A stretch of DNA of 64,000 nucleotides from Coleofasciculus sp. B1-GNL1-01 (GTDB taxonomy: Bacteria > Cyanobacteriota > Cyanobacteriia > Cyanobacteriales > Coleofasciculaceae), in the NCBI GenBank assembly GCA_040220235.1, contig JAVJTO010000095.1; one strand, 5' to 3'. A program made the translations under genes and the position numbers. The notes under the pieces were generated by a model. That model was not told where the DNA came from. It was given only the letters and a program-made list of their open reading frames with translations, and made no database searches. Each line of letters begins with the position of its first letter. Within the stretch, counting starts at the first letter, position 1. This document shows positions 50,975-64,000 of this stretch, one piece after another.

Positions 50975-51796
50975 TCAGTCGGTTTCCTTCTCCTCTTGCT
51001 TTTGCAGAGTTTCCGAGGCTTCTTGAACCTGCTTCAGATGAATCGTATTCACCTGATTAATGAAATTCTCGATTGCCTGTTTCAGCTTTTTCTTACGTTG
51101 GGATTCATCGGCTATATCATAGCAACGATACGCCTGAGTTACTCCCAATATGAATTTTTCTCGTTCTGCTTCTAACAGTTCAACTGCCGTATTTGCCGAA
51201 ATCCAATTTTCTTGAAAAGGAAATGACGTTACCACACTGGCAACAATAGAAGCGACCGCTGGAAAGATAACAGGTAACCACTTAAACCAAACCACACCAA
51301 TATCTAACTTATCAACCAAAACCAGAATTGGTGTAATCCCAGAAAAGACAATCGTTGCCATTTGGAATGTATAATAGATATTTCTCGAAGTCTGGCGACT
51401 TTGTTTATAGTCTTCAATCAGTTCTTGGCAATACTGCAAAGCATTTTCTCTGGCTACCGTTATGGGATTGTTACCCGGTTGTTGCTGTTCATCAACGAGA
51501 TATTGATAAATTTCCGCTCGTTTGGCAACATCAAGCTGAATTTGACGACTTGCTGCTTGAGCTAACTGTTTATCGAGCAAGACAAGGAAAACAAAAAATG
51601 AAACTAAAACAGCTATCCAGATAACGATACTTGCTTTATTGTCAACAACAAAGCTAATGATGCTTGTACCAATTAACGCCGCGAGGAACAGGTATTGTCC
51701 AATCTTGATCCAGGGAATCGGCATACTGGGTAAGAGTGAACCCTTTTCTCCTGCCTGAGACGGATCAGATGGATTAGTATTGTTGAGAGTGGTCAT
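50975..51796 (-). CDS. DUF4231/SLATT-like membrane protein with an extra N-terminal TM pair
   Basis: YY..Q..TIVFS.ITP, second TM, and FQENW...ELLE.E..KF pattern. Confidence 0.75.
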   Translation of the reverse strand: MTTLNNTNPSDPSQAGEKGSLLPSMPIPWIKIGQYLFLAALIGTSIISFVVDNKASIVIWIAVLVSFFVFLVLLDKQLAQAASRQIQLDVAKRAEIYQYLVDEQQQPGNNPITVARENALQYCQELIEDYKQSRQTSRNIYYTFQMATIVFSGITPILVLVDKLDIGVVWFKWLPVIFPAVASIVASVVTSFPFQENWISANTAVELLEAEREKFILGVTQAYRCYDIADESQRKKKLKQAIENFINQVNTIHLKQVQEASETLQKQEEKETD

Positions 51797-51912: not shown

Positions 51913-54111
51913 ATGGCGAATCTATTAATTATCGAATCAGGCGGTAAGGTCAAAAAACTCAAATCCATTCTCGGTGCTGGCTGGACAGTTAAAGCCAGTA
52001 TGGGTCATGTGCGGGAATTAGCCGATGATGGGGATGATTCTCTGGGGTTTGATTTGGACGGTTCCCACATCCACTGTCGCTATGTTCCCCGGAGTAGTCA
52101 AGCCAAGAAAATCTTATCGGAATTGCGCGGTGCGATTCGCCAAGCTGACCGCATTTACCTGGGGACTGATCCCGATAGAGAAGGGGAAACGATTGGCTGG
52201 CATTTGACCCAGGCTTTGCGATTAAAGAATCCGTTACGAGTGACCTATACCGAGATTACCAAAGCCGCCGTCGATCGCGCGATCGCACATCCGAAATCCC
52301 TTGATTCTAATTTAGTCGCCGCCGGACGCGCCAGGGATTGTTTGGATAAGTTGGTGGGATATAAGGGGAGTCGATTAGTCTGGCGTTTGAATAACGGCTG
52401 CAAATCCATGGGACGGGTGCAGAGTGCAACACTGCATCTATTGGTGAAGCGAGAACAGGAGATTTTGGCATTTAAACCTCAGGATTATTGGGTCGTCTGG
52501 GTTGAGTATCAGGAGGGATTTAAGGCTGTTTACGCAGGTCGAACTTACCCGCAAACGACGCAACGGCGGAATTCGAGGGATAAAAATAAGACTCAACCTG
52601 ATGATGCAGGTGAGGAGACGCCAGTCTCGGAAGGGACACGGGTACTCTCTCAGGAAGACGCGGATCAACTCGTTGCGATCGCCCGATCTCATTCTCATCA
52701 TGTTGTCACAGTCGAAGGAAAAACGGTTAAACAATCTCCCCCCGCCGCCTTTACTACCTCTACGCTTCAGCAATCTGCTGGTGCAAAACTCAAGCTGAAT
52801 CCAGAAGTGACAATGAAAATTGCCCAAAGCCTCTATGAAGCGGGACATATTACCTATATGCGGACGGATTCGGTGGCGTTGTCTCCAGAGTTTTGTCAGG
52901 CGGCGAAACAGTGGCTTTTACAGCATGACCCGGATAATGTACCCGCTAGAGTAGCCGCCCATCGCTCGAAATCCGGGGCGCAAGAAGCCCATGAAGCGAT
53001 TCGTCCGACTCATGTTGAACGTATACCAGAACAATTATCGGTTCAACTGACTAGGGATGAGGCGAAGCTGTATGATTTAATTTGGAATCGCGCGATCGCC
53101 ACTCAATGCTGTCAAGCTCAATTGTCCAAAACTCGGATTGTCACCCAATCAGGGGATGTATTTTGGGAAGCCAGGGGACAGGTGTTAGTCGTACCTGGTT
53201 ATACTCGCTATTGGAATAATATCGCCGCCGATTCCCAATTACCACAAGTACAGCCAGGACAATTGCTGACCTTAGATAACGCAGGTGCGGATAAGAAACA
53301 AACCCAGCCACCCCCCCGCTACAGCGAACCCAAACTGGTGCAGGCGATGGAACGTTCCGGAATTGGTCGTCCTAGCACTTATGCGCCGACAATTAAGACT
53401 CTCAAAGCGCGTAACTATGTGCAGTTAAGTAAAGGGAAATTGCAGCCAACCCAATTGGGGATGGAACTGGATGCATTTTTGGCACAGGTGTTACCCGACC
53501 TAATTCAGCCAGAATTTACCGCTAAGATGGAATCGGATTTAGATGCGATCGCGTCAGGGAAGTTGGATTGGGAGTGCTATTTAACCGGGTGGAATCGAGA
53601 TTATTTTGCTCCGGCGCTCAACTCGGCATTTTCCCAAGTTCCAGAAATAGCCAGTCAAACTCAGTCTACCCCGAAGGGTGAATCGAAACGGCGTCCGAGA
53701 ACGGAACTCACGGATTATTCCTGTCCTAAATGTCAGCATCGGATGACTAAGGTATTTTCTACCTCTAAGAAGCTAAAAGCGGATCATTTCCTTAGTTGCG
53801 ATAATCGTGAGGGGGGATGTGGGGCGGTAATGTTTTGGAATGGGAAGGCTGGGGAGTATGAGTTACCGCGTTCGGAACGTCCTAAAGCCAAACCCACCAA
53901 GCCAGACAAACCAGCCAACTTAACGGAATATGCTTGTCCCAAGTGTGGCAAGCCGTTGGAGTTGTATGAATATGAGAAAGAGGGTCAAGCGAAGAAAATG
54001 CTGCGTTGTGCAAATCCCAAGTCTCGTCAGGGAAAATGTAAAACTGTGGCTTATTTTTGGACGAAAAAGGGGACGTTTTGGAGTCCCAAGTTTGGCGAGG
54101 TGAAAAAGTGA
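51913..54111 (+). CDS. topA: Type IA DNA topoisomerase with two C4 zinc ribbons (probably an accessory copy)
   Basis: TOPRIM IIES..K and DPDREGE; GRVQS; catalytic ITYMRTDS; GIGRPST; two C-terminal CPKC motifs. Confidence 0.9.
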   Translation: MANLLIIESGGKVKKLKSILGAGWTVKASMGHVRELADDGDDSLGFDLDGSHIHCRYVPRSSQAKKILSELRGAIRQADRIYLGTDPDREGETIGWHLTQALRLKNPLRVTYTEITKAAVDRAIAHPKSLDSNLVAAGRARDCLDKLVGYKGSRLVWRLNNGCKSMGRVQSATLHLLVKREQEILAFKPQDYWVVWVEYQEGFKAVYAGRTYPQTTQRRNSRDKNKTQPDDAGEETPVSEGTRVLSQEDADQLVAIARSHSHHVVTVEGKTVKQSPPAAFTTSTLQQSAGAKLKLNPEVTMKIAQSLYEAGHITYMRTDSVALSPEFCQAAKQWLLQHDPDNVPARVAAHRSKSGAQEAHEAIRPTHVERIPEQLSVQLTRDEAKLYDLIWNRAIATQCCQAQLSKTRIVTQSGDVFWEARGQVLVVPGYTRYWNNIAADSQLPQVQPGQLLTLDNAGADKKQTQPPPRYSEPKLVQAMERSGIGRPSTYAPTIKTLKARNYVQLSKGKLQPTQLGMELDAFLAQVLPDLIQPEFTAKMESDLDAIASGKLDWECYLTGWNRDYFAPALNSAFSQVPEIASQTQSTPKGESKRRPRTELTDYSCPKCQHRMTKVFSTSKKLKADHFLSCDNREGGCGAVMFWNGKAGEYELPRSERPKAKPTKPDKPANLTEYACPKCGKPLELYEYEKEGQAKKMLRCANPKSRQGKCKTVAYFWTKKGTFWSPKFGEVKK

Positions 54112-54253: not shown

Positions 54254-55021
54254 TTAAAGTGACATACCCCCGCCTCCAGTCATTACTGTTTCTCCAGTGG
54301 GCTGCGAGAATCTTTGTGATGGCTCGACAGTCACTACAATTGAAGAGTTACCTGACATGACATTATCTAACGGGATTTCTACGAATACTTTTCCTTGAGG
54401 GTCAGGCTTAAATTCACCACAGTAAATTTTTTTCCCGTCGGCAGTTGCCCACAATCGATAAATTTGTCCTTTGGGTAAGGGATCTAGATTTTGGAGTGTT
54501 AATACTGCCACCTCAGAGTTTGGTACAATCACCATACTTCCAGAGGCTTGAGGGATTGCATTCGTTCCTTTGAGGGATACCAAGCGGCTACTAGGCTGAC
54601 GAAGTAACGCGATCGCTTCCTTGTAGCGCGATAGTTCAGCACGAGCAGCAATTACCTCTTGATGTAAGCGATAGCTATATATACTGAGTCCAACTATAAC
54701 AGAAGCAGCAACACTTCCTGCAACACTAAGCCAAGCTTTTTGTCTTCTCCGAAGTCGGTTTGATACTCTTGCCGTTGAACTCGTATCGCTATCTCTAGCC
54801 ACTTGTAAAATCTGAGACCCTAAACTTGCAGGAGGCGAAGTTTCCGGTAAAGATAAAGGAAGTAATGCCAAAGTTTTCTGCAAGTGGCTCACTTCAGTAG
54901 CTAATTCTGGATTAGACTCCAATAACTGATTCACCGAAGCCACTTCTTCTGGAGTCAAATCACCAAGGACGTAGCTGGCTAAAAGTTCGTTTAAGTCTTC
55001 GGAGTCTCGAAAGTCTACCAT
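54254..55021 (-). CDS. Anti-sigma factor, RskA-like
   Basis: ELLASYVLGDL N-terminus, TM helix, YRLWA...VTVEP...PTG C-terminus; overlaps the sigma gene. Confidence 0.88.
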   Translation of the reverse strand: MVDFRDSEDLNELLASYVLGDLTPEEVASVNQLLESNPELATEVSHLQKTLALLPLSLPETSPPASLGSQILQVARDSDTSSTARVSNRLRRRQKAWLSVAGSVAASVIVGLSIYSYRLHQEVIAARAELSRYKEAIALLRQPSSRLVSLKGTNAIPQASGSMVIVPNSEVAVLTLQNLDPLPKGQIYRLWATADGKKIYCGEFKPDPQGKVFVEIPLDNVMSGNSSIVVTVEPSQRFSQPTGETVMTGGGGMSL

Positions 55022-55581
55022 CGCTGTTCTACCAAATCTTGTAATAGTTGTCTAAGCTTTAACAAGCCCTTGCGCTTGTAAGTTTTTACAGTTCCTATGG
55101 GCATATTCAAGCCTTGGGCAATTTCTGATTGACTTAAGCCGTCATAGTAAGCCATCTCCAGAACCTGCCGATGATGGGAAGGCAGTTCAGAGAGTGCCTC
55201 GCGGACGCGGCTCGACATTTCTTCTAAGGAAGCCTTATCCATCAACGTACTCCAACTTTCAGGCGGAAGGCTGCGAGTCCATCGTTGAAGACGCTGCCAC
55301 TGGGCTTGCATCTGACGATGGCGGTCAATTGCTTTTGAGCGGGTTAAAGTCAATAAAAAAACTAACATGGAACCTCGCTTCGAGTCATAAGTTCCTCTGT
55401 GTCTGAGGGCAAGAAATACTTCTTGGGTGAGGTCTTCAGCCTCTTGTGGATTGCCTAACATCCGCAAAGCGGTGCGGTAAACAACCTCTCCATAGCGCTC
55501 GTAAAGGATACCCAAGGCTAGCAGGTTCCCCGATCGCAACGCTTGAAATACCTCGGCATCCGTTTGGTGGGATAGCATCAT
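55015..55581 (-). CDS. ECF sigma-70 factor (SigK-like)
   Basis: AEDLTQEVF region 2; AYYDGLSQSEIA..L..P.GTVK region 4. Confidence 0.92.
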   Translation of the reverse strand: MMLSHQTDAEVFQALRSGNLLALGILYERYGEVVYRTALRMLGNPQEAEDLTQEVFLALRHRGTYDSKRGSMLVFLLTLTRSKAIDRHRQMQAQWQRLQRWTRSLPPESWSTLMDKASLEEMSSRVREALSELPSHHRQVLEMAYYDGLSQSEIAQGLNMPIGTVKTYKRKGLLKLRQLLQDLVEQRW

Positions 55582-55687
55582 TTAAAACCATTGGTCTTGA
55601 CATAAAAGCTAAAGCATGATGTTGATTTGTATCATCGACTGCCGTTTTTGCTCGATTCAAACCTATTGATCTGAGATTTATCAGTGA

Positions 55688-55714
55688 TACGAGGCTGACG
55701 CTCAAAAGGATTTA
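55688..55714 (-). promoter_or_regulatory. Putative ECF promoter A, upstream of the sigma gene
   Basis: Minus strand TAAATCC-TTTTGAGCGTCAGCCT-CGTA. Confidence 0.75.
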
Positions 55715-55935
55715 CTCAGGTTGAGTCGAAATTCAGTTTCTCCCTCAATGGCGCTCTTGATCGTCCTTGAGTTGTGTAATAGAGAGCTTAGTAAGATATG
55801 GCACGTCGAGATTGTTTCGTGACGGATGATGGACAGTATTTTGACTATTAAATTGAAAATTAGGGCGCACAAAAAGATTTTCATTCGCGAGAATTAAAGG
55901 CGCTCGTTAGGTCAGGCATCAGGCAAACGGGTCAG

Positions 55936-56166
55936 TCAGCGCTTCCTTGTACGACTGATATACTGACCGTGAATGTTAACAGCGTAAGGAACTAGGTAGG
56001 TCAAACTGCCGGAAATCCATCGTTCTCGATTCATCTGACCTTTGACTAGCGCTGACCCGTGATTAATTGCAAACAGAATAGAACCAACCACCACAGAAAC
56101 CTTGAGTGCTGTCGGCATCAAATCTTTATCGAAAAGACACAAACAAAATTCCCTTACAAGTTTCAT
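55936..56166 (-). CDS. NrtS-family small membrane protein
   Basis: TALKVSVVVGSIL.AINHG...LTYLVPY.V pattern. Confidence 0.75.
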   Translation of the reverse strand: MKLVREFCLCLFDKDLMPTALKVSVVVGSILFAINHGSALVKGQMNRERWISGSLTYLVPYAVNIHGQYISRTRKR

Positions 56167-56325
56167 CTCCCAACTCGATAACGATTACTTTCTTTCAAGC
56201 TACTTTGGGAGTGGGTTTTCAGTGGCTGGCTCTTGATTGCAGATGCGCCACTCGCTTCCCGCAGGTTAACGGAGAGAATTGACTCGCTGAAAAATCAAAA
56301 ATCTGCCATTTAAACGTACATCAGC

Positions 56326-56670
56326 TTAAACAGCCTTCAGAATTGCTTCTGAATACAACTTCTTTGGTTTTAATCCAGCAATCTGTTCTAAAACTGTTGT
56401 TCCTTTCAATAAAACAACAGTTGGAGCACTCCGCACACCCAATTCCATTGCCAAATCGGGTTCTTCCGTCATATCGATTGTGACCAGATGAATCTTACCA
56501 CTATGGTCAGTCACCAACTTTTCTAATACGGGCGCAAGAGTTTTGCAGGAAGGGCAGTGAGGAGCAACAAATTTAACGAAAATCGGTGTTTCAACGTCTT
56601 GCTGCAACTGTTGAAGAGCGTTTCGTCCTTGGTATCCAGCGCAAAAAATATTGTTCGTGGAATCTGACAT
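56326..56670 (-). CDS. Thioredoxin family protein (CPSC)
   Basis: APHCPSC active site and cis-Pro SAPT; likely ATG at 56670 after GGAG. Confidence 0.85.
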   Translation of the reverse strand: MSDSTNNIFCAGYQGRNALQQLQQDVETPIFVKFVAPHCPSCKTLAPVLEKLVTDHSGKIHLVTIDMTEEPDLAMELGVRSAPTVVLLKGTTVLEQIAGLKPKKLYSEAILKAV

Positions 56671-56767
56671 TTTTCTGTCTCCTAGTTGGTTGATAAATCG
56701 ATGCAACTGTTTGGCAGTTACCCCCGTGCCAGAGCCAATAATGACCCGATTTTCTACCCTCACTAAC

Positions 56768-57619
56768 TTAGCCGCCCAAAAACCATTGAGTGCCAGTAAA
56801 CAGGTAGTACGTTCCAGTTAAAATCAGAGCCACACTGCCAAAGTGAATAATTGCCTCGGAATGTTTCAATAACTGCTTGCTTTGTTTTGCTAGTCCGGTA
56901 AACAAACTCGCCAGGAAAATCAGCATGGTGTAACCCAAAGCGTAGCTAACCATCGTTAGTGTGCCTAAGAGTTGAGAGCCAGTAGCTGCCGCTGCTGCCA
57001 GCACCGCAAACAGCACTGGACTGGCACAGGGAGAACTCACCAAGGCAAAGGTCAACCCTACTCCATAAGGTCCCGCCTGGGGGAGATTCAAATCCATTTG
57101 TGGTAGGGGCAACGTAACTACCCCCATCAACCACAAACCCATCAGAGCCATAATCAGTCCCACGACTACATTGATATAGCCTCGGTACTCCACCATGACG
57201 GTTCCGGCAAAGGAGGAGACTAAGCCAAACAGACTTAAAATTGTTACAGCCCCCAAAACAAATAAGCCAGCCTTGGTCAAAGCATCCCAACGGGATTTAA
57301 TGTTCAACGTGCCGATATAACTGAGGTTGACGGGCAACAGCGCCAGAATGCATGGAGATACACTGGCAAGCAATCCACCAATAAATGCCAAGGGCAATAG
57401 CACTAGGGGATTGGCAGTATCTTGCTGGTCAAACCACTGCTGGTAGCGGTTTTCAACGAGGGATATCGCCCGTTCGATTGGGTGGCTGATGACAGGTCCT
57501 AGGGTGATAACCAACGCTAGGGAAAGCAATCCCAATCCTCCGTAAATCAACCATTGTTTTGAAACTTTAAAACGTCGAGAAGCCTTGTGATCAGATGATG
57601 ATCGAGGTATTTGTGCCAT
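56768..57619 (-). CDS. ccdA: CcdA/DsbD-type transmembrane disulfide reductant
   Basis: Paired SPCIL and SPCASP Cys motifs in a polytopic membrane protein. Confidence 0.88.
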   Translation of the reverse strand: MAQIPRSSSDHKASRRFKVSKQWLIYGGLGLLSLALVITLGPVISHPIERAISLVENRYQQWFDQQDTANPLVLLPLAFIGGLLASVSPCILALLPVNLSYIGTLNIKSRWDALTKAGLFVLGAVTILSLFGLVSSFAGTVMVEYRGYINVVVGLIMALMGLWLMGVVTLPLPQMDLNLPQAGPYGVGLTFALVSSPCASPVLFAVLAAAAATGSQLLGTLTMVSYALGYTMLIFLASLFTGLAKQSKQLLKHSEAIIHFGSVALILTGTYYLFTGTQWFLGG

Positions 57620-57638
57620 GAAATTGTCCTTACCTCAG

Positions 57639-58292
57639 CTAATTTTTGGCTAGAGCCGTGTCGAGAATCTGGGTGTAGTCATCCTGATTGGGATTATTTT
57701 TGAACATTGCTAAAATGTTGCCAGTCGCTGGGTCAACAATTGCCACGGTGCTAGTTTTACTCTTAGTATCTTCTAGGAATTTCCCCAAACCTAATTTTTC
57801 CGCCTTGGCTTGTGTTTCTTCGAGTGTGGCTTTATCCGTTACGTCTAGCACAACAAAGTTAACCCGATCACTATATTGCTGTTTCAATTGGGTCAGAGTG
57901 GGCGCAATATTCTTGCAGCCAGCACACCAGGTCGCAAACACATCCACTACCACGGGTTTACCCTGAAGTTCTGTAGCTAGGGGATTTCCTACAGATTGAG
58001 CTTTAGCAGCACATGGATTCTCTTTGGCAGCACAGGGATTGGCTTTAGAGGCGCAAGGATTCTCTTTAGCGGCACAAGGATTAGCTTTAGAAGCACAAGG
58101 ATTCTCTTTAGCGGCACAAGGATTAGCTTTAGAAGCACAGGGATTTTCTTTGGCAGCACAAGGATTAACTTGGTTGGTAGTACCCGTGTCTGGAGTGTTA
58201 GTCTTGGCGGCACAAGGGTTAGAGCAAGCAGCAACAAGTCCCAGACTCAGCATTGAAGCAACAGCAAGTGTAGCCAGATACTTAACTCTCAT
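57639..58292 (-). CDS. Thioredoxin-domain lipoprotein with NPCA(A/S)K Cys-rich repeats
   Basis: Signal peptide with lipobox LVAAC23; nine NPCA(A/S)K motifs; WCAGC thioredoxin fold; GAGGA RBS. Confidence 0.88.
   Translation of the reverse strand: MRVKYLATLAVASMLSLGLVAACSNPCAAKTNTPDTGTTNQVNPCAAKENPCASKANPCAAKENPCASKANPCAAKENPCASKANPCAAKENPCAAKAQSVGNPLATELQGKPVVVDVFATWCAGCKNIAPTLTQLKQQYSDRVNFVVLDVTDKATLEETQAKAEKLGLGKFLEDTKSKTSTVAIVDPATGNILAMFKNNPNQDDYTQILDTALAKN
57999..58166 (-). repeat. Eight 21-bp coding tandem repeats with 42-bp higher-order period
   Basis: Alternating NPCAAKE/NPCASKA units. Confidence 0.93.
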
Positions 58293-58328
58293 AGAATCCT
58301 CATCATGAGTACGACGGTTTATAGGGAA

Positions 58329-58355
58329 TACGAAGCTGAAGCCAAAAAGGATTTA
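58329..58355 (-). promoter_or_regulatory. Putative ECF promoter B, upstream of the Cys-repeat thioredoxin operon
   Basis: Minus strand TAAATCC-TTTTTGGCTTCAGCTT-CGTA. Confidence 0.78.
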
Positions 58356-58513
58356 GTGAATTTTTCTATGAAATGCAACCGAGCCTGCCAGATGCTGGGT
58401 AAAAAATGTTGTACATTGTACAAAATAAATCCTAAAGAAAAGCTGAAAAGCTTGATAGGGCTAGATTATCAGCTTGCGTTATCACCCCAAATACGAAAGA
58501 GCCATCTAGTTGG

Positions 58514-58540
58514 TAAATCCGTTTTGACTTCAGCTTCGTA
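58514..58540 (+). promoter_or_regulatory. Putative ECF promoter C, upstream of the glycosyltransferase operon
   Basis: TAAATCC-GTTTTGACTTCAGCTT-CGTA. Confidence 0.78.
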
Positions 58541-58651
58541 TCCTCTCATGAACACTCACATAAATGGTCTGCTCCTACTGCTATGGCTGCACGGCTAGAT
58601 GTGGTTCGAGCTGTGGTGGTGCTTTGATTTGAAGTAAGGAAATTTGGAAGA

Positions 58652-59500
58652 GTGACTTTAAAGGAAGCAGAAACTGAAAGAATTTCTATTATTATCCCGG
58701 TTCTCAATGAGGTGGGAACGATAAAAGAAGCGCTAGCCAGTACCTATTCCAGTACAAATGTAGAAGCGATCGCAGTCGATGGGGGTTCCACAGATGGTAC
58801 AGTTGGGCTAGTTCAGTCCTTGGGCGTGAAAGTTTTGTCAGCCCCTGCGGGTCGCGCTTGTCAAATGAATGCGGGTGCAATGGCAGCAACAGGCGAAATT
58901 CTGTTGTTTCTCCATGCCGATACTCGCTTACCCCCTGGGTTCGACACGATGGTTCGCACGGCGCTGCAACCATCAATGCCGGGAGGTAGAAAAGCTCCAG
59001 TTGCTGGTGCGTTTGCATTGCAGATTGACGCAGCACTGAGAAGGTTGTGGTTAATTGAATGGGGAGTAAATTGGCGATCGCGCTTTCTGCAAATGCCCTA
59101 TGGCGACCAAGCCATCTTTCTCAAAGCAAAAACATTTTACCAGATGGGTGGCTTCCCAGAGTTGCCGATTATGGAAGATTTTGAATTGATGCGTCGGTTA
59201 AAGCGCACTGGACGCATCGCACTTATCCCCACACCAGTTGTTACCTCAGCACGTCGATGGCTGAAAAAGGGAGTGCTTCAAACAACGCTCATTAACCAGA
59301 TGGTTATTTTAGCTTACTTACTAAACGTTTCACCCAAGCAACTGGTTCGTTGGTATCGCCATCAACCCAAACTAACGCCAAACCACTGGTTTAGGTCAAC
59401 CCCCGATCCTAAATCCGCTTCAATAACTCCTTTATCAACAGAGTTAGGAGAAGAGACAAAAAGTAGCAAAAGAGAGATAGTCCACCCCGATTGGGTATGA
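58652..59500 (+). CDS. GT2 glycosyltransferase, TIGR04283-like (rSAM/arsenosugar-associated)
   Basis: ISIIIPVLNE, VDGGS.D, GRA.QMN.GA, LFLHADT, PYGDQ, MEDF and TSARRW motifs. Confidence 0.85.
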   Translation: MTLKEAETERISIIIPVLNEVGTIKEALASTYSSTNVEAIAVDGGSTDGTVGLVQSLGVKVLSAPAGRACQMNAGAMAATGEILLFLHADTRLPPGFDTMVRTALQPSMPGGRKAPVAGAFALQIDAALRRLWLIEWGVNWRSRFLQMPYGDQAIFLKAKTFYQMGGFPELPIMEDFELMRRLKRTGRIALIPTPVVTSARRWLKKGVLQTTLINQMVILAYLLNVSPKQLVRWYRHQPKLTPNHWFRSTPDPKSASITPLSTELGEETKSSKREIVHPDWV

Positions 59501-59548
59501 GTTAATATCCAAAAAAAATTTCAGAGGAACCCAATAATCAATGAGAGG

Positions 59549-60709
59549 ATGTGTCGTTTAAATTCAATCGCAGACGGAGAAACCGAGGGTAGTCCAATGA
59601 CTCAAAGGAGCAAATGCCGCTTTAATTCTCAGCTAAAATTTATACTAATCAGTGGCTTAGTTTTCATCCTGATTGTGGCTGCCCAATCCTTCAACATTCG
59701 GCAACTTTTGCAAGCCTCATTACTTTGGGTTGAAAACCTTGGCATCTTAGCACCTGTTGTGTTTATCATCATCTATAACTTAGCAACGGTGCTATTTATA
59801 CCGGGTTCTCTCCTGACACTAAAAGGAGGTTGCTTATTTGGTGTGTTTTGGGGTTCAATTTATGTCACAATTGCGGCAACGTTGGGAGCTGTCTGTGCTT
59901 TCCTGATTGGACGCTATCTCTCTCGCGATTGGGTTTGCAGGAAGATTGAAAGTAATCCTAAATTCAAAGCGATTAATCAAGCGGTGAAGCAAGAAGGATG
60001 GAAAATTGTCCTGCTGACTCGCCTTTCTCCTATATTCCCGTTCAACCTGCTCAACTACGCCTTTGGTGTTACTCAAGTTTCACTCAGAGATTATATTTTG
60101 GGTTCTATTGGTATGATTCCTGCTACGGTGGTGTATGTTTACATTGGTTCCCTAGCTACTGATTTAGCCACACTCAATCTGTCCAATCAACCCTCCACAA
60201 AAGAAACTCAAATCGCCCACCATCTAATTCGAGGCATTGGATTAATTGCTACAGTTGCCGTCACTGTTTATATAACCCACCTTGCCAAAAAAGCTTTAGA
60301 CGAAAACATTGAAGGGAACAAAAAATTTCGGGCAATTGACGAAGCGGTGGGCAGAGAAGGACTCAAAATTGTTCTATTAACGCGACTTTCTCCCATATTT
60401 CCCTTCAATTTATTGAACTACGCCTATGGCATTACGGGAGTCTCTCTCAAAGACTACGTTATCGGTTCTGTGGGTATGATTCCCGGAACAATTATGTATG
60501 TTTACATCGGTTCTTTAGCGGGTAGTCTAGCCACAATTGGTACTGAAGCTCAACCCGCAAACCCCACGGTGCAATGGGCGATTCGGATTATTGGTTTTAT
60601 CGCCACCGTTGCTGTCACGCTTTATGTAACCAAAGTCGCACGTAAGGCTTTAGAAGAGGAAGTTTTAGATCATGAAGACAATCAAACTAAGCCCATCAAT
60701 CCGAATTAG
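59549..60709 (+). CDS. TVP38/TMEM64 (DedA/VTT) family protein, 1.5-copy fusion
   Basis: LLTRLSPIFPFNLLNYA occurs twice. Confidence 0.85.
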   Translation: MCRLNSIADGETEGSPMTQRSKCRFNSQLKFILISGLVFILIVAAQSFNIRQLLQASLLWVENLGILAPVVFIIIYNLATVLFIPGSLLTLKGGCLFGVFWGSIYVTIAATLGAVCAFLIGRYLSRDWVCRKIESNPKFKAINQAVKQEGWKIVLLTRLSPIFPFNLLNYAFGVTQVSLRDYILGSIGMIPATVVYVYIGSLATDLATLNLSNQPSTKETQIAHHLIRGIGLIATVAVTVYITHLAKKALDENIEGNKKFRAIDEAVGREGLKIVLLTRLSPIFPFNLLNYAYGITGVSLKDYVIGSVGMIPGTIMYVYIGSLAGSLATIGTEAQPANPTVQWAIRIIGFIATVAVTLYVTKVARKALEEEVLDHEDNQTKPINPN

Positions 60710-60848
60710 CCAATACGCCAAGTCAGATCTTGAATCTGAATGATGGAGTCATCAATATGTTAGACATCTATGATCAGAATAATCACAACAATGGATAAAA
60801 AATCCAATCAGCTGACTCCTTAATCCTATTTGAAAAACAGAGGTAAGT

Positions 60849-61385
60849 ATGATGACAACTGGAACAATGACAGCTAAATTAATGACTGGAACTCAAGTTT
60901 CCGAACTTGAAGTAAAAACCCTGGATGGCAAGCTTTGGAAACTTTCCGAGCAGAAACCCAAAAACTTGACCATGGTTGTTTTTTACCGAGGTGTGTTTTG
61001 CCCAATTTGTCACTCCTATCTGGCGGAAATAGACCGACTGTTGGGTGATTTTAAGCAACTTGGTGTTGAAGTCATTGCCCTGAGTGGAGATAGTCAAGAA
61101 GCCGCTCAACAATCTAAAGATGAGTGGGGTATTCAAAATCTCACGATAGGCTATGAAGCTAGTCTTGAACTAATGCGTTGTTGGGGACTTTACATTTCAA
61201 AAGGTGCTTTTGAAAATGAACCTCCTCTATTTTGTGAACCCGGTCTATTTCTAGTTAAACCTGATGGCATACTTTTCTATGCTGCCGTGAATAGTGGACC
61301 CTTTGGTCGTCCACCTATATCCGAAATGCTATCGTCAATCGACTTTGTTCTGAAAAAGAATTACCCCATACGAGGAACCGAATAA
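60849..61385 (+). CDS. Peroxiredoxin-like AhpC/TSA family protein
   Basis: FYRG.FCPIC, EPGLFLV.PDG, PFGRP and YP.RG motifs. Confidence 0.87.
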   Translation: MMTTGTMTAKLMTGTQVSELEVKTLDGKLWKLSEQKPKNLTMVVFYRGVFCPICHSYLAEIDRLLGDFKQLGVEVIALSGDSQEAAQQSKDEWGIQNLTIGYEASLELMRCWGLYISKGAFENEPPLFCEPGLFLVKPDGILFYAAVNSGPFGRPPISEMLSSIDFVLKKNYPIRGTE

Positions 61386-61428
61386 ATTAATCTATTTCAG
61401 CAATTATTAGTTTTTGAAGGAGTCAATA

Positions 61429-62976
61429 ATGTCAAATTCAGCCTTTCAAAGAGTCAATGTCCTACCGATGGATGACTATAACAAAAAACTGGTGTCTTAT
61501 GTTCATCCACCTGATTGGGTTAATCCTCAACCTGCCGATTGTTATGACTTAGTTGTGATTGGTGCGGGTACGGCGGGATTAGTGGTAGCAGCAGGTGCAG
61601 CGGGTTTAGATGTCGGTTTAAAAGTCGCCTTAGTTGAAAAACATCTCATGGGCGGAGATTGTTTGAATGTCGGTTGTGTTCCTTCTAAGTGCATTATTCG
61701 CTCCTCTCGTGTCATTGCTGAGATGAAAGAGGCTGGAGTTTTTGGCATTCATCCGCCAGAAAACATAGAGGTGAATTTTTCGGCAGTCATGGAACGGATG
61801 CGGAAGCTTCGAGCGGGAATTAGCCATCACGATTCTGTTCAACGTTTCCAAAAAATTGGCATTGATGTTTTCTTAGGAGAAGGTCATTTTTTACGGAATA
61901 ACCGGATCGAAGTTGGCGATAAGATTCTACGATATAAAAAAGCTGTTATTGCGACGGGAGCGAGAGCGGTGCGTCCCTCAATTCAAGGGATTGAAGAAGC
62001 GGGATTTTTAACAAATGAAACAGTTTTTTCACTGACTCAACGTCCCAAACGCCTTGCTGTCATTGGTGGTGGACCCATCGGTTGTGAATTAGCTCAAGCG
62101 TTTCATCGGTTGGGTTCTAAGGTAATTCTTTTCCATCGAGGCTCTCATCTGTTGAATAAAGAAGATGCTGATGCCGCAGAAATTGTTCAAAATGTCTTGA
62201 TTCAAGAAGGGATTCAGTTGGTGCTGAGTTCACAAACTGAGCGCGTGGTTAAAACGGCTGAAGGTAAAACGCTTTATTACACCTCTGGCAACGGCGCAAA
62301 ACAGTCAGTTACGGTTGATGAAATTTTAGTGGGTGCGGGACGTGCGCCGAATGTTGAAGGTCTAAATTTAGACGCAGTTGGGGTAGACTATGATCGCAAA
62401 GGGGTGAAGGTGAATGATTACCTGCAAACGACGAATCCAAAAATTTATGCGGCTGGCGACATCTGCATGAAATGGAAGTTTACCCATGCCGCCGATGCTG
62501 CTGCACGGATTGTAATTAAGAATACTCTGTTTTCTCCGTTTGGCTTGGGACGTTCCAAACTCAGCAGCTTAGTCATGCCTTGGGTAACCTATACTGACCC
62601 AGAAATTGCTCATGTGGGGATGTACGAACATGAGGCTCAGGAAACGGGAATAGAGGTCAATACAATTAAGATTCCATTTAGTAGTGTAGACCGTGCGATC
62701 GCAGATGGTGAAGAGGATGGGTTTGTTAAGATTCACTACAAGAAAGGTTCCGACCAAATTTTAGGAGCAACGATTGTCGCTCGTCATGCGGGGGAGATGA
62801 TTAGCGAAGTGACGACGGCAATTGTTAATAAAATCGGTTTGAATGGGTTATCGGGTGTGATTCATCCCTATCCGACTCAAGCTGAAGGTATCAAGAAAGC
62901 AGCGGATGCTTATCGCCGCACCTTGTTAACACCAACCTCGAAGAAAATATTGGGATTGCTCACCAAATTGTATTAA
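61429..62976 (+). CDS. MerA-like FAD-dependent pyridine nucleotide-disulfide oxidoreductase
   Basis: GAGTAG, GGDCLNVGCVPSK, GGGPIG and HPYPT motifs; AAGGAG RBS before ATG at 61429; no C-terminal Cys-Cys. Confidence 0.9.
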   Translation: MSNSAFQRVNVLPMDDYNKKLVSYVHPPDWVNPQPADCYDLVVIGAGTAGLVVAAGAAGLDVGLKVALVEKHLMGGDCLNVGCVPSKCIIRSSRVIAEMKEAGVFGIHPPENIEVNFSAVMERMRKLRAGISHHDSVQRFQKIGIDVFLGEGHFLRNNRIEVGDKILRYKKAVIATGARAVRPSIQGIEEAGFLTNETVFSLTQRPKRLAVIGGGPIGCELAQAFHRLGSKVILFHRGSHLLNKEDADAAEIVQNVLIQEGIQLVLSSQTERVVKTAEGKTLYYTSGNGAKQSVTVDEILVGAGRAPNVEGLNLDAVGVDYDRKGVKVNDYLQTTNPKIYAAGDICMKWKFTHAADAAARIVIKNTLFSPFGLGRSKLSSLVMPWVTYTDPEIAHVGMYEHEAQETGIEVNTIKIPFSSVDRAIADGEEDGFVKIHYKKGSDQILGATIVARHAGEMISEVTTAIVNKIGLNGLSGVIHPYPTQAEGIKKAADAYRRTLLTPTSKKILGLLTKLY

Positions 62977-63050
62977 CGCTTCTTAGCTAATTTTGATAAT
63001 TATGAAAGCGAAGTTTCACAGTTTAGATGTAAGGAGTTGAAAGCAGTCTG

Positions 63051-63452
63051 ATGAATAGCGATCGCCGAATCCCAGTTGCATTGCTCTTGCTGCGACTGAG
63101 TGTGTTTCTGGTCATGCTGATGTGGACTTTAGATAAATTTGTGAACCCTGACCATGCCGCAGCAATTTTCCAGAATTTTTATTTGATTGGTGGATTGAGT
63201 AATATGCCAATTTACCTCATTGGGGGGATTCAGCTTATCATTATTCTGGGATTTGTAACAGGTTTCCAAAAGCGGTGGACTTATTTGCTAGTGCTATTTT
63301 TCCATTCTGTTTCCACCTTTTCATCTTTTCGGCAATATTTCGCTCCCTTTGAAAACTTGCTATTTTTCGCAGCTTGGCCCATGCTGGCGGCTTGCTTTGC
63401 CCTTTATTATCTCAGAGATTTAGACATCATCTGGACAGTTGATAAAAATTAA
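63051..63452 (+). CDS. DoxX-like 4-TM membrane protein
   Basis: LLLRLSVFLVMLMW.LDKF.NP and LLFFAAWPML motifs. Confidence 0.75.
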   Translation: MNSDRRIPVALLLLRLSVFLVMLMWTLDKFVNPDHAAAIFQNFYLIGGLSNMPIYLIGGIQLIIILGFVTGFQKRWTYLLVLFFHSVSTFSSFRQYFAPFENLLFFAAWPMLAACFALYYLRDLDIIWTVDKN

Positions 63453-63746
63453 TTATCTAAATTTAGGATATTAATAATTACAATTTCTTACATTTTCAAC
63501 TCTTGTGAAACAAGAGTCGTCTGGTGTTGAACCCATTAACTGAATTTATCTCTAATAATTTACATCATTTGCGATCGCTATTATGTTTACGCCTCTCATC
63601 CACTCGTCATTGAGGGAGAATCTGTTTACTTTACGATTCACCTTGGGGAATCGCGTATTAGCCTCTGTCCCCGAAGAGACTTAACGACGAGTTGAGGAGC
63701 ATCTTTCCAATTACTCAGATATCCTAATCCAACCTAGGATCTAGAG

Positions 63747-63773
63747 TAAATCCTTTTTGGTTTTAGCTTCGTA
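63747..63773 (+). promoter_or_regulatory. Putative ECF promoter D
   Basis: TAAATCC-TTTTTGGTTTTAGCTT-CGTA. Confidence 0.72.
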
Positions 63774-63859
63774 TCTCTGTATAGAACTCCCAAATGGATG
63801 ATCTAATACCCAGCCTTTCACTTTTTTTTACAATGTCGCCATCCTAACCCACCTGCTGA

Positions 63860-64000
63860 TAAGCTGTTCGGCATTTAAATAGGGTATAATCAAAATAGAA
63901 AATCCGAAAAACGAAAAAATATGCCAGCCAAAAATTATTTAAAACCAGAGCAGAAAGAAAAATTACAAATTGCCCTAAAAACCGAGAATAACGCAGATAT
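63860..64000 (+). mobile_element. Left end of a probable IS630-family element; transposase begins at 63921 (partial)
   Basis: TA-anchored end TAAGCTGTTCGGCATTTAAATAGGGTATA; ORF MPAKNYLKPEQKEKLQIALK runs off the window. Confidence 0.6.

Follow-up and report, generated by a model that had tools for sequence, protein, structure and literature searches.

In this study we analysed a 64,000-base stretch of DNA (the window) from contig JAVJTO010000095.1 of the cyanobacterium Coleofasciculus sp. B1-GNL1-01, in which four copies of the motif TAAATCC-N16-CGTA accompany the gene for a sigma factor of the extracytoplasmic function (ECF) type at 55015-55581. The four copies are very probably the -35/-10 promoters of this sigma. 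An earlier note on this DNA had proposed the motif as the cognate promoter, and as a prediction we can support it, because the motif is conserved upstream of related sigma genes at an exact 16-base spacing, co-occurs with close relatives of the sigma across 52 genomes of the family, carries a -10 box that co-varies with the specificity residues of the sigma and is followed by purine-rich positions at the predicted start, and because the genome has only one other ECF-like sigma.

The motif has exactly four matches in the window (Table 1), against a mean of 0.01 and a maximum of one in 100 dinucleotide shuffles. This bears out the number, positions, strands, invariant boxes and exact spacing given in the earlier note, and the four 16-base spacers (TTTTGAGCGTCAGCCT, TTTTTGGCTTCAGCTT, GTTTTGACTTCAGCTT and TTTTTGGTTTTAGCTT) display the T-rich start and the AGC(T/C)T before CGTA that it described. 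The copies are 78-93% identical to one another over the 27 bases and 62-88% identical over the spacer, compared with 17-37% for their 60-base flanks, so the similarity is restricted to the motif. All four lie outside long reading frames and are oriented towards the next gene. By position copy 1 would serve the sigma gene (ATG at 55581), copy 2 a secreted thioredoxin (58292) and copy 3 a glycosyltransferase (58652), with copies 2 and 3 standing back to back and each facing one of two divergent units. The intergenic placement and correct orientation claimed earlier therefore stand, as does the copy before the sigma gene, with the qualification that the first frame after copy 4 encodes an IS630-type transposase and no regulon gene. 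Purines make up 93% of the bases ten positions after CGTA at 34 close sites and 94% of those nine positions after it at 43 distant sites, and positions 9-11 are purine-rich. This bias places the predicted starts about 9-10 bases after CGTA, just 3' of the -10 box as had been expected, but one to two bases beyond the 6-8 first suggested.

The earlier note had proposed looking upstream of orthologous sigmas, and there the core of the motif is found at exactly the same spacing. An order-level set of 151 genomes contained 58 with a relative of the sigma at an E-value of 1e-30, from which 36 distinct loci were analysed. The core ATCC-N16-CGTA occurs within 500 bases upstream of 20 of these 36 sigma genes on the sense strand, and at 11 of the 36 on the antisense strand, facing divergent genes. 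Over the same loci spacers of 12-15 and 17-20 bases gave 0-1, the coding region gave none at spacer 16, and shuffles gave a mean of 0.1 and a maximum of 2. A second set comprised 78 of 79 loci from named genomes, L142 having been dropped as it has no upstream DNA. Here the core was present at 12 of 35 loci with at least 44% identity (spacer 17 gave three, other spacers 0-1) and at 4 of 43 below 44%. Further sites in the loci of relatives precede thioredoxins, ccdA, cytochrome b, DUF4394 and small exported repeat proteins.

The extended form of the motif follows a single lineage of sigmas. A quick tree of 74 sigmas places the window sigma in a branch of 13 rows (support 94), and it is this one branch that the T-tract form marks, with TAAATCC, a T-tract and (C)TT ahead of CGTA; most other relatives have ATCCAA. 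At the family level we compared 52 genomes, and all eight with a sigma of at least 80% identity carry the extended pattern, at 23 sites; six of the eight were unseen when the pattern was built. The other 44 genomes (G155 among them) hold nine such sites in all, and a reversed control gave 23 matches in the 52 genomes. In G015 a site lies before a thioredoxin-ccdA pair on a different contig from its sigma, and in G170 six to seven sites precede different genes. The order-wide count of the extended pattern was set aside as evidence: at least two matches occur in 7 of the 151 genomes, but five of these are training genomes and one is the source genome. G060, with two matches, has no matching sigma and no regulon-like context, and we read it as chance.

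The -10 box also changes with the sigma. Two branches that do not have CGTA carry a predicted box of their own, TGTA at 8 of 10 loci in the sister branch (predicted subclade loci L037, L044, L095, L096, L102, L103, L110 and L124) and CGTC at 7 of 10 in another (L049, L091, L114, L117, L123, L132 and L149). Among 76 loci, the 63 with Asp86 have CGTA at 42, CGTC at 9, TGTA at 1 and none of these at 14, where one locus may hold two kinds; the 13 with Asn86 have TGTA at 6, CGTA at 2 and none at 5. A loop of the Cys-Arg type goes with CGTC at all seven loci that have it. For RpoE, Todor et al. attribute positions -13/-12 to Asn84, position -10 to residues of the loop and position -32 to Arg171/Phe175, and a T at -32 goes with Arg at the Phe175 position (PMC7776599). 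An ungapped region-4 match to E. coli RpoE, allowing for a three-residue tag deduced from chain length, puts Arg170 of the window sigma at the Phe175 position, and Arg is found at position 170 in 74 of the 76 loci.

We also scanned the source genome (8.66 Mb in 172 contigs). The bare 11-base pattern at spacer 16 gives nine matches, five of them outside the island of genes around the sigma, and at 14 other spacers it gives 1-15 matches with a mean of about 7. The five extra matches are thus at background level, and the bare pattern is not rare genome-wide. On a weight matrix built solely from 13 sites in relatives, the four island sites score 31.2-41.6 bits and the next best place in the genome 19.6 bits. 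Four of the five outside matches score -8 to +3 bits and do not have the full spacer signature, while the fifth, on contig C153, falls within a long frame and is absent from the matrix's top 25. All five were rejected as regulon members, given their background-level count and the missing spacer signature. A broad consensus was also rejected as a predictor of targets, since a matrix from 22 distant-clade sites separates poorly here (top score 20 bits, with one island site at 18.3 bits in the top 25). The earlier suggestion that the regulon can be predicted from sequence holds, then, when the spacer signature is used and lifts the island sites far above the rest, but the 11 invariant bases alone are insufficient.

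The sigma has the domain architecture of the group 4 (ECF) factors, with Sigma70_r2 at residues 26-90, r4 at 125-178 and no r3. Its top solved-structure match is SigK, which is only a proxy for membership of the ECF19 group profile. The anti-sigma is encoded at the +1 position, as is typical of ECF19, and has a single membrane-helix candidate with a hydropathy peak of 1.88 at residues 96-114. The sites themselves carry the ATC at -35 and the CG or TG at -10 of ECF19 promoters, and form a bipartite motif with a spacer in the 16-18 base range of ECF promoters, placed before the sigma's own operon and conserved in orthologues. The region-4 cysteine pair of the SigK subgroup and of ECF18, which is not defining for ECF19 overall, is absent, the sigma having no cysteine. 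ECF18 is further characterised by proteobacterial origin, and the named close homologues of the sigma are all cyanobacterial, the best being from Coleofasciculus at 97%. The profile PRK12519 is, we presume, linked to cyanobacterial SigI, and a SigI-type label also fits the published gene context. By these features we classify the proteins as a putative SigK/RskA-like, ECF19-type, SigI-like pair. A profile search of the genome found one other ECF-like sigma, which we take to be SigG-like, plus two weaker SigF/SigJ-like matches.

Several observations weigh against assigning the sites to this sigma. The exact core is missing within 500 bases of 16 of the 36 and 23 of the 35 related sigma genes; many of these loci can be explained by operon position or by the TGTA and CGTC variants, but not all (for example L042, L097, L129 and L121). 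The genomes compared are related, and the counts are not independent tests. The co-variation of -10 box and residues amounts to about two evolutionary changes only, both in the direction predicted by the published code, and the region-2 residues are mapped to RpoE numbering by inference. For paralogues of the island genes elsewhere in the genome (arsM, glycosyltransferase, dedA-merA, ccdA and a thioredoxin fragment), the stretches scanned contain no site scoring over 9 bits, and the genome's own arsM has none in 1500 bases upstream, so arsenosugar synthesis as a whole would not be under this sigma here. In addition, the promoters were assigned from assembled contigs; one RNA run was among the data, as contigs and with a small share, and was set aside as evidence of starts or expression. 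Any inducing signal is a guess from gene content.

The predicted regulon is local here, with four promoters and about a dozen genes (Table 1).

Table 1. Predicted promoters and genes of the island, in window coordinates
Feature	Position	Strand	Remarks
Predicted promoter 1 (copy 1), autoregulatory; sigma and anti-sigma	55688..55714	-	Predicted start about 55679-55678, some 97 bases upstream of the ATG
Predicted promoter 2 (copy 2); secreted thioredoxin-ccdA-thioredoxin-nrtS	58329..58355	-	Predicted start about 58320-58319
Predicted promoter 3 (copy 3); glycosyltransferase-dedA-prx-merA-like-doxX	58514..58540	+	Predicted start about 58548-58550
Predicted promoter 4 (copy 4); probable original target DUF3179 gene, IS630-type insertion between	63747..63773	+	Predicted start about 63781-63783
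RskA-type anti-sigma, 255 aa	54254..55021	-	RskA_C domain; one hydrophobic stretch, about residues 96-114
ECF sigma factor, 188 aa, no cysteine	55015..55581	-	PRK12519 above cut-off; nearest solved structure SigK
NrtS-family small membrane protein	55936..56166	-	NF038050
Thioredoxin	56326..56763	-	Relatives suggest a later start, near 56670
CcdA/DsbD-type membrane electron carrier	56768..57619	-	PF02683, PF13386
Likely exported thioredoxin-like lipoprotein, NPCA(A/S)K repeats, CxxC site	57639..58292	-	Export inferred from N-terminal sequence
TIGR04283 arsenosugar-biosynthesis-type glycosyltransferase	58652..59500	+	259.5 bits, cut-off 182
DedA/TVP38 protein, two VTT domains	59549..60709	+	Domain match
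AhpC/TSA (peroxiredoxin-like) protein	60849..61385	+	Domain match
MerA-like FAD disulfide oxidoreductase	61414..62976	+	PRK06370 above cut-off; below MerA cut-off
DoxX-like membrane protein	63051..63452	+	Weak match, below Pfam cut-off
IS630-type element, left end and transposase start (ATG 63921)	63860..64000	+	Contig ends inside element

Two features of the island genes vary among strains. The tandem NPCA(A/S)K repeats of the exported thioredoxin, at 57990-58170, differ in number between strains, and in G044 a mini-protein of such repeats alone precedes the sigma (L033:9417-9686). The two DedA/VTT genes, which are separate in relatives, form one fused frame in the window.

Copy 4 is now separated from its probable target by an insertion sequence (IS) that begins about 85 bases after it and that, from its sequence, we take to be of the IS630 family. 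Four contigs begin or end with the other end of this element, and one of them, C82, runs on into a DUF3179 gene that has a homologue within the G044 island. Contigs of runs X5 and X18 lead from the copy-4 region into the DUF3179 start codon, the X5 contig spanning copy 4 to 63813 and then continuing without the IS. The C82 continuation and the X5 and X18 contigs suggest that copy 4 most likely served DUF3179, and that the copy-4 region would join the gene on C82 across the IS. The element (63860-64000 in the window and L081:190-1209 on C82) has the same direction as copy 4 and lies between it and DUF3179, so activation by the sigma could now read into the transposase. We also observed a duplicate leader: a 50-base stretch upstream of copy 4, at 63653-63702, shares 80% identity with the leader that immediately precedes the start codon of DUF3179. 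From the topoisomerase I gene bordering the island, 147 bases (53609-53755) recur with 92.5% identity at L081:1416-1562, just after DUF3179 and so at the presumed far end of the island, and may mark an integration or recombination boundary. The IS630-type terminal repeats are common to very many elements of about 100-150 bases genome-wide, with well over 100 ends among the matches listed, and these short elements are likely a family of miniature inverted-repeat transposable elements.

The same parts recur in a different order elsewhere. In the T-tract branch (13 genomes) the island draws on a common set of parts, reshuffled from genome to genome, and it is patchy within the genus, where three of nine genomes have it. 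In G098, of the same genus (L213:6700-11900), the stretch from about 54348 to 62533 is lost together with the sigma and its promoters; the topoisomerase gene directly abuts the 3' portion of the MerA-like gene, and doxX and DUF3179 are truncated around another mobile element. Horizontal exchange of the island is likely. In 5 of the 13 genomes a site has the genes arsM-arsS downstream of it: at close range in G017, G170 and G177, by way of a presumed operon in G072, and with a weak variant as the site in G044. In the first three the pair stands before a glycosyltransferase, the only one of that trio kept in the window. We rejected the idea that this sigma family controls arsenosugar genes in general, as the core was found within 1.5 kb at none of 29 ordinary arsM loci; these come from the best 30 of 66 matches, the 30th being the island copy of G017. 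At 55719-55930, with the break 5 bases upstream of copy 1, near relatives hold about 5.1 kb more (runs X1 and X4). In G166 this position (L200:6819-13863) is occupied by a phosphonate-type ABC transporter, a radical SAM protein, a phosphotransferase and a phosphate porin, with a rhodanese on the other strand. Beside the island, a SLATT/DUF4231 membrane-protein gene at 50975-51796 (minus strand) is divergent from the topoisomerase gene.

Could the sites belong to a different regulator? They might be operators of another DNA-binding protein, or promoters of another sigma (housekeeping or SigG-like ECF), that merely travel with this sigma. The identity of the spacers exceeds the need of two sigma boxes and could mark the site of a second protein. 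We consider this very unlikely: the motif shows no dyad but an asymmetric form with a constant gap of 16 bases, it varies along with the specificity residues of the sigma, and SigG is predicted to use GGAAC/GTC (PMC8155712). Furthermore, no match of a sigma-70-type promoter scan coincides with any site, with 15 found against 15.4 expected in the region. A terminator scan of the region was at chance level. Another explanation would make the copies a short repeat with no function, left over from local duplication, gene conversion or the ends of mobile elements. Identical 27-mers do stand before unrelated genes within single relatives (G014 and G170), so copying of promoter cassettes probably helped the sites to spread, and the island is often rearranged. 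The similarity nevertheless ends at the motif, the sites are directed at a downstream gene, and across the order the boxes and spacing are retained while the middle of the spacer varies. A dispersed repeat or mobile-element end would have many genomic copies and similarity running into the flanks, and the earlier note had named a scattered motif as grounds for abandoning the promoter reading. We found high-scoring sites nowhere else in the 8.66 Mb and the flanks dissimilar, and regard a repeat of this kind as extremely improbable.

It is also possible, though we think it rather doubtful, that the sites are true promoters of the sigma in an island that has decayed here and is partly silent, so that the predicted regulon is overstated. 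The IS between copy 4 and its gene, the missing arsM-arsS pair, the 5.1-kb block absent from 55719-55930 and the same-genus genome without the sigma and most of the island would all suit such a history. Yet all four sites have perfect boxes, and the sigma, the anti-sigma and ten target frames are intact. Decay is compatible with the sites being promoters of the sigma and only limits that reading.

Taking the sites as promoters of the sigma, we propose the following mechanism. TAAATCC would occupy -36 to -30 and CGTA -13 to -10, separated by the 16-base spacer that opens with the T-tract, and transcription would begin about 9-10 bases on. Region 4 of the sigma may read ATCC, with Arg170 at the position linked to T at -32, and region 2 may read CGTA, with Asp86 recognising the C at -13 and a YxxxRGS loop the A at -10. 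By analogy with Bacillus ECF promoters, the T-tract could bend the promoter DNA and sharpen selectivity. As in SigK-RskA, the anti-sigma would hold the sigma at the membrane until an envelope signal led to its proteolysis and freed the sigma. The sigma itself has no cysteine, so the disulfide switch of SigK would not apply and sensing would rest on the anti-sigma. The freed sigma would then drive transcription of its own operon and of three units next to it, so that autoregulation would be positive, with feedback through the anti-sigma, as in related systems. The output would be a small local regulon supplying reductant to the envelope (CcdA, thioredoxins, Prx and the MerA-like reductase) together with arsenosugar-type and DedA genes. 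The likeliest trigger, and the weakest step, would be envelope thiol/oxidative or metalloid stress, a proposal that could fall either way.

More tentatively, and with a good deal of doubt, we hypothesise that this SigI-like subclade acts as a horizontally exchanged switch dedicated to an inducible island for arsenic/thiol stress, often with a second arsenosugar pathway (arsM-arsS-glycosyltransferase), and that the promoter it reads is unusually long, at about 27 bases, with a T-tract that shields it from SigI paralogues in the same cell. Where other SigI-like paralogues of a strain have the same ATCC-N16-CGTA core, cross-talk is plausible. If the hypothesis were true, this would be the first sigma-level control of arsenosugar synthesis, as far as the literature searched reaches, and would offer cyanobacteria an orthogonal switch ready for use, in three naturally occurring specificity variants (CGTA, TGTA and CGTC). 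A local, autoregulated ECF regulon is a common kind of system, and for about half of ECF sigmas the predicted number of controlled promoters is three or fewer. What the locus supplies is a set of exact sites, predicted starts, a short target list and a residue-to-base code, which make the question of the SigI promoter directly testable. It also suggests a role for these sigmas in envelope reductant supply and, in one subclade, in the expression of arsenosugar genes, and, with four high-scoring sites in a genome of 8.7 Mb, such a sigma could plausibly serve as a part in the engineering of cyanobacteria.

How the system compares with known sigmas can be judged from the sources cited here. A 2009 review described the function and promoter recognition of cyanobacterial SigI as unclear (PMC2758279). 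For SigI and the extra sigma HTZ78_05385 of Synechocystis sp. PCC 7338 the boxes CATCC and CGTA have since been predicted, the consulted portion giving boxes only, with no spacer, sites or regulon (PMC8155712). Its gene tables place ccdA and a redoxin beside SigI, and an anti-sigma, TVP38, arsM, arsS and a mercuric-reductase-like gene beside HTZ78_05385. These SigI-type sigmas therefore share the predicted core boxes and the kinds of neighbouring gene with the window, and it is by gene context and predicted boxes that we liken them; the window subclade adds TAAATCC, the T-tract and (C)TT before CGTA. The core was thus already in print, and what we would add is a subclade-specific extended promoter, the residue-to-base variants and a concrete candidate regulon. 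In the literature searched we found neither a SigI promoter or regulon that had been tested nor a link between a sigma and arsenosugar genes, either of which subscription papers and the large Todor datasets may hold. We also found there no T-tract promoter variant tied to one sigma subclade, nor its small local regulon.

The ECF19 group has an RskA-like one-helix anti-sigma, ATC at -35 and CG/TG at -10, with 5.65% cyanobacterial members; one subgroup has a cytochrome c biogenesis gene as conserved neighbour, and cleavage of RskA on an envelope signal is described (PMC7826278). The Mycobacterium SigK-RskA regulon includes the CcdA-family dipZ (PMC7509140, PMC9861118). The window pair is alike in its RskA-like anti-sigma directly downstream, its ATC and CG/TG boxes and its best solved-structure match to SigK, but unlike SigK its sigma has no cysteine and hence no SigK-type disulfide switch. 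The targets also differ, being MPT70/MPT83 for SigK-RskA and, as predicted, thioredoxin, DedA, MerA-like and arsenosugar genes in the window. ECF18 (RpoT, and LitS of Burkholderia) shares the CGTA -10 box and an RskA-like anti-sigma (PMC7826278), but is proteobacterial only, with a cysteine pair in region 4 and TGCATCTT at -35. Finally, in Bacillus ECF sigmas a T-tract next to the -35 box tunes selectivity (PMC5758882); the Bacillus subtilis SigV, SigW, SigX and SigM promoters resemble those of the window in this T-tract, but belong to different sigma groups and have AAC-type -35 boxes.

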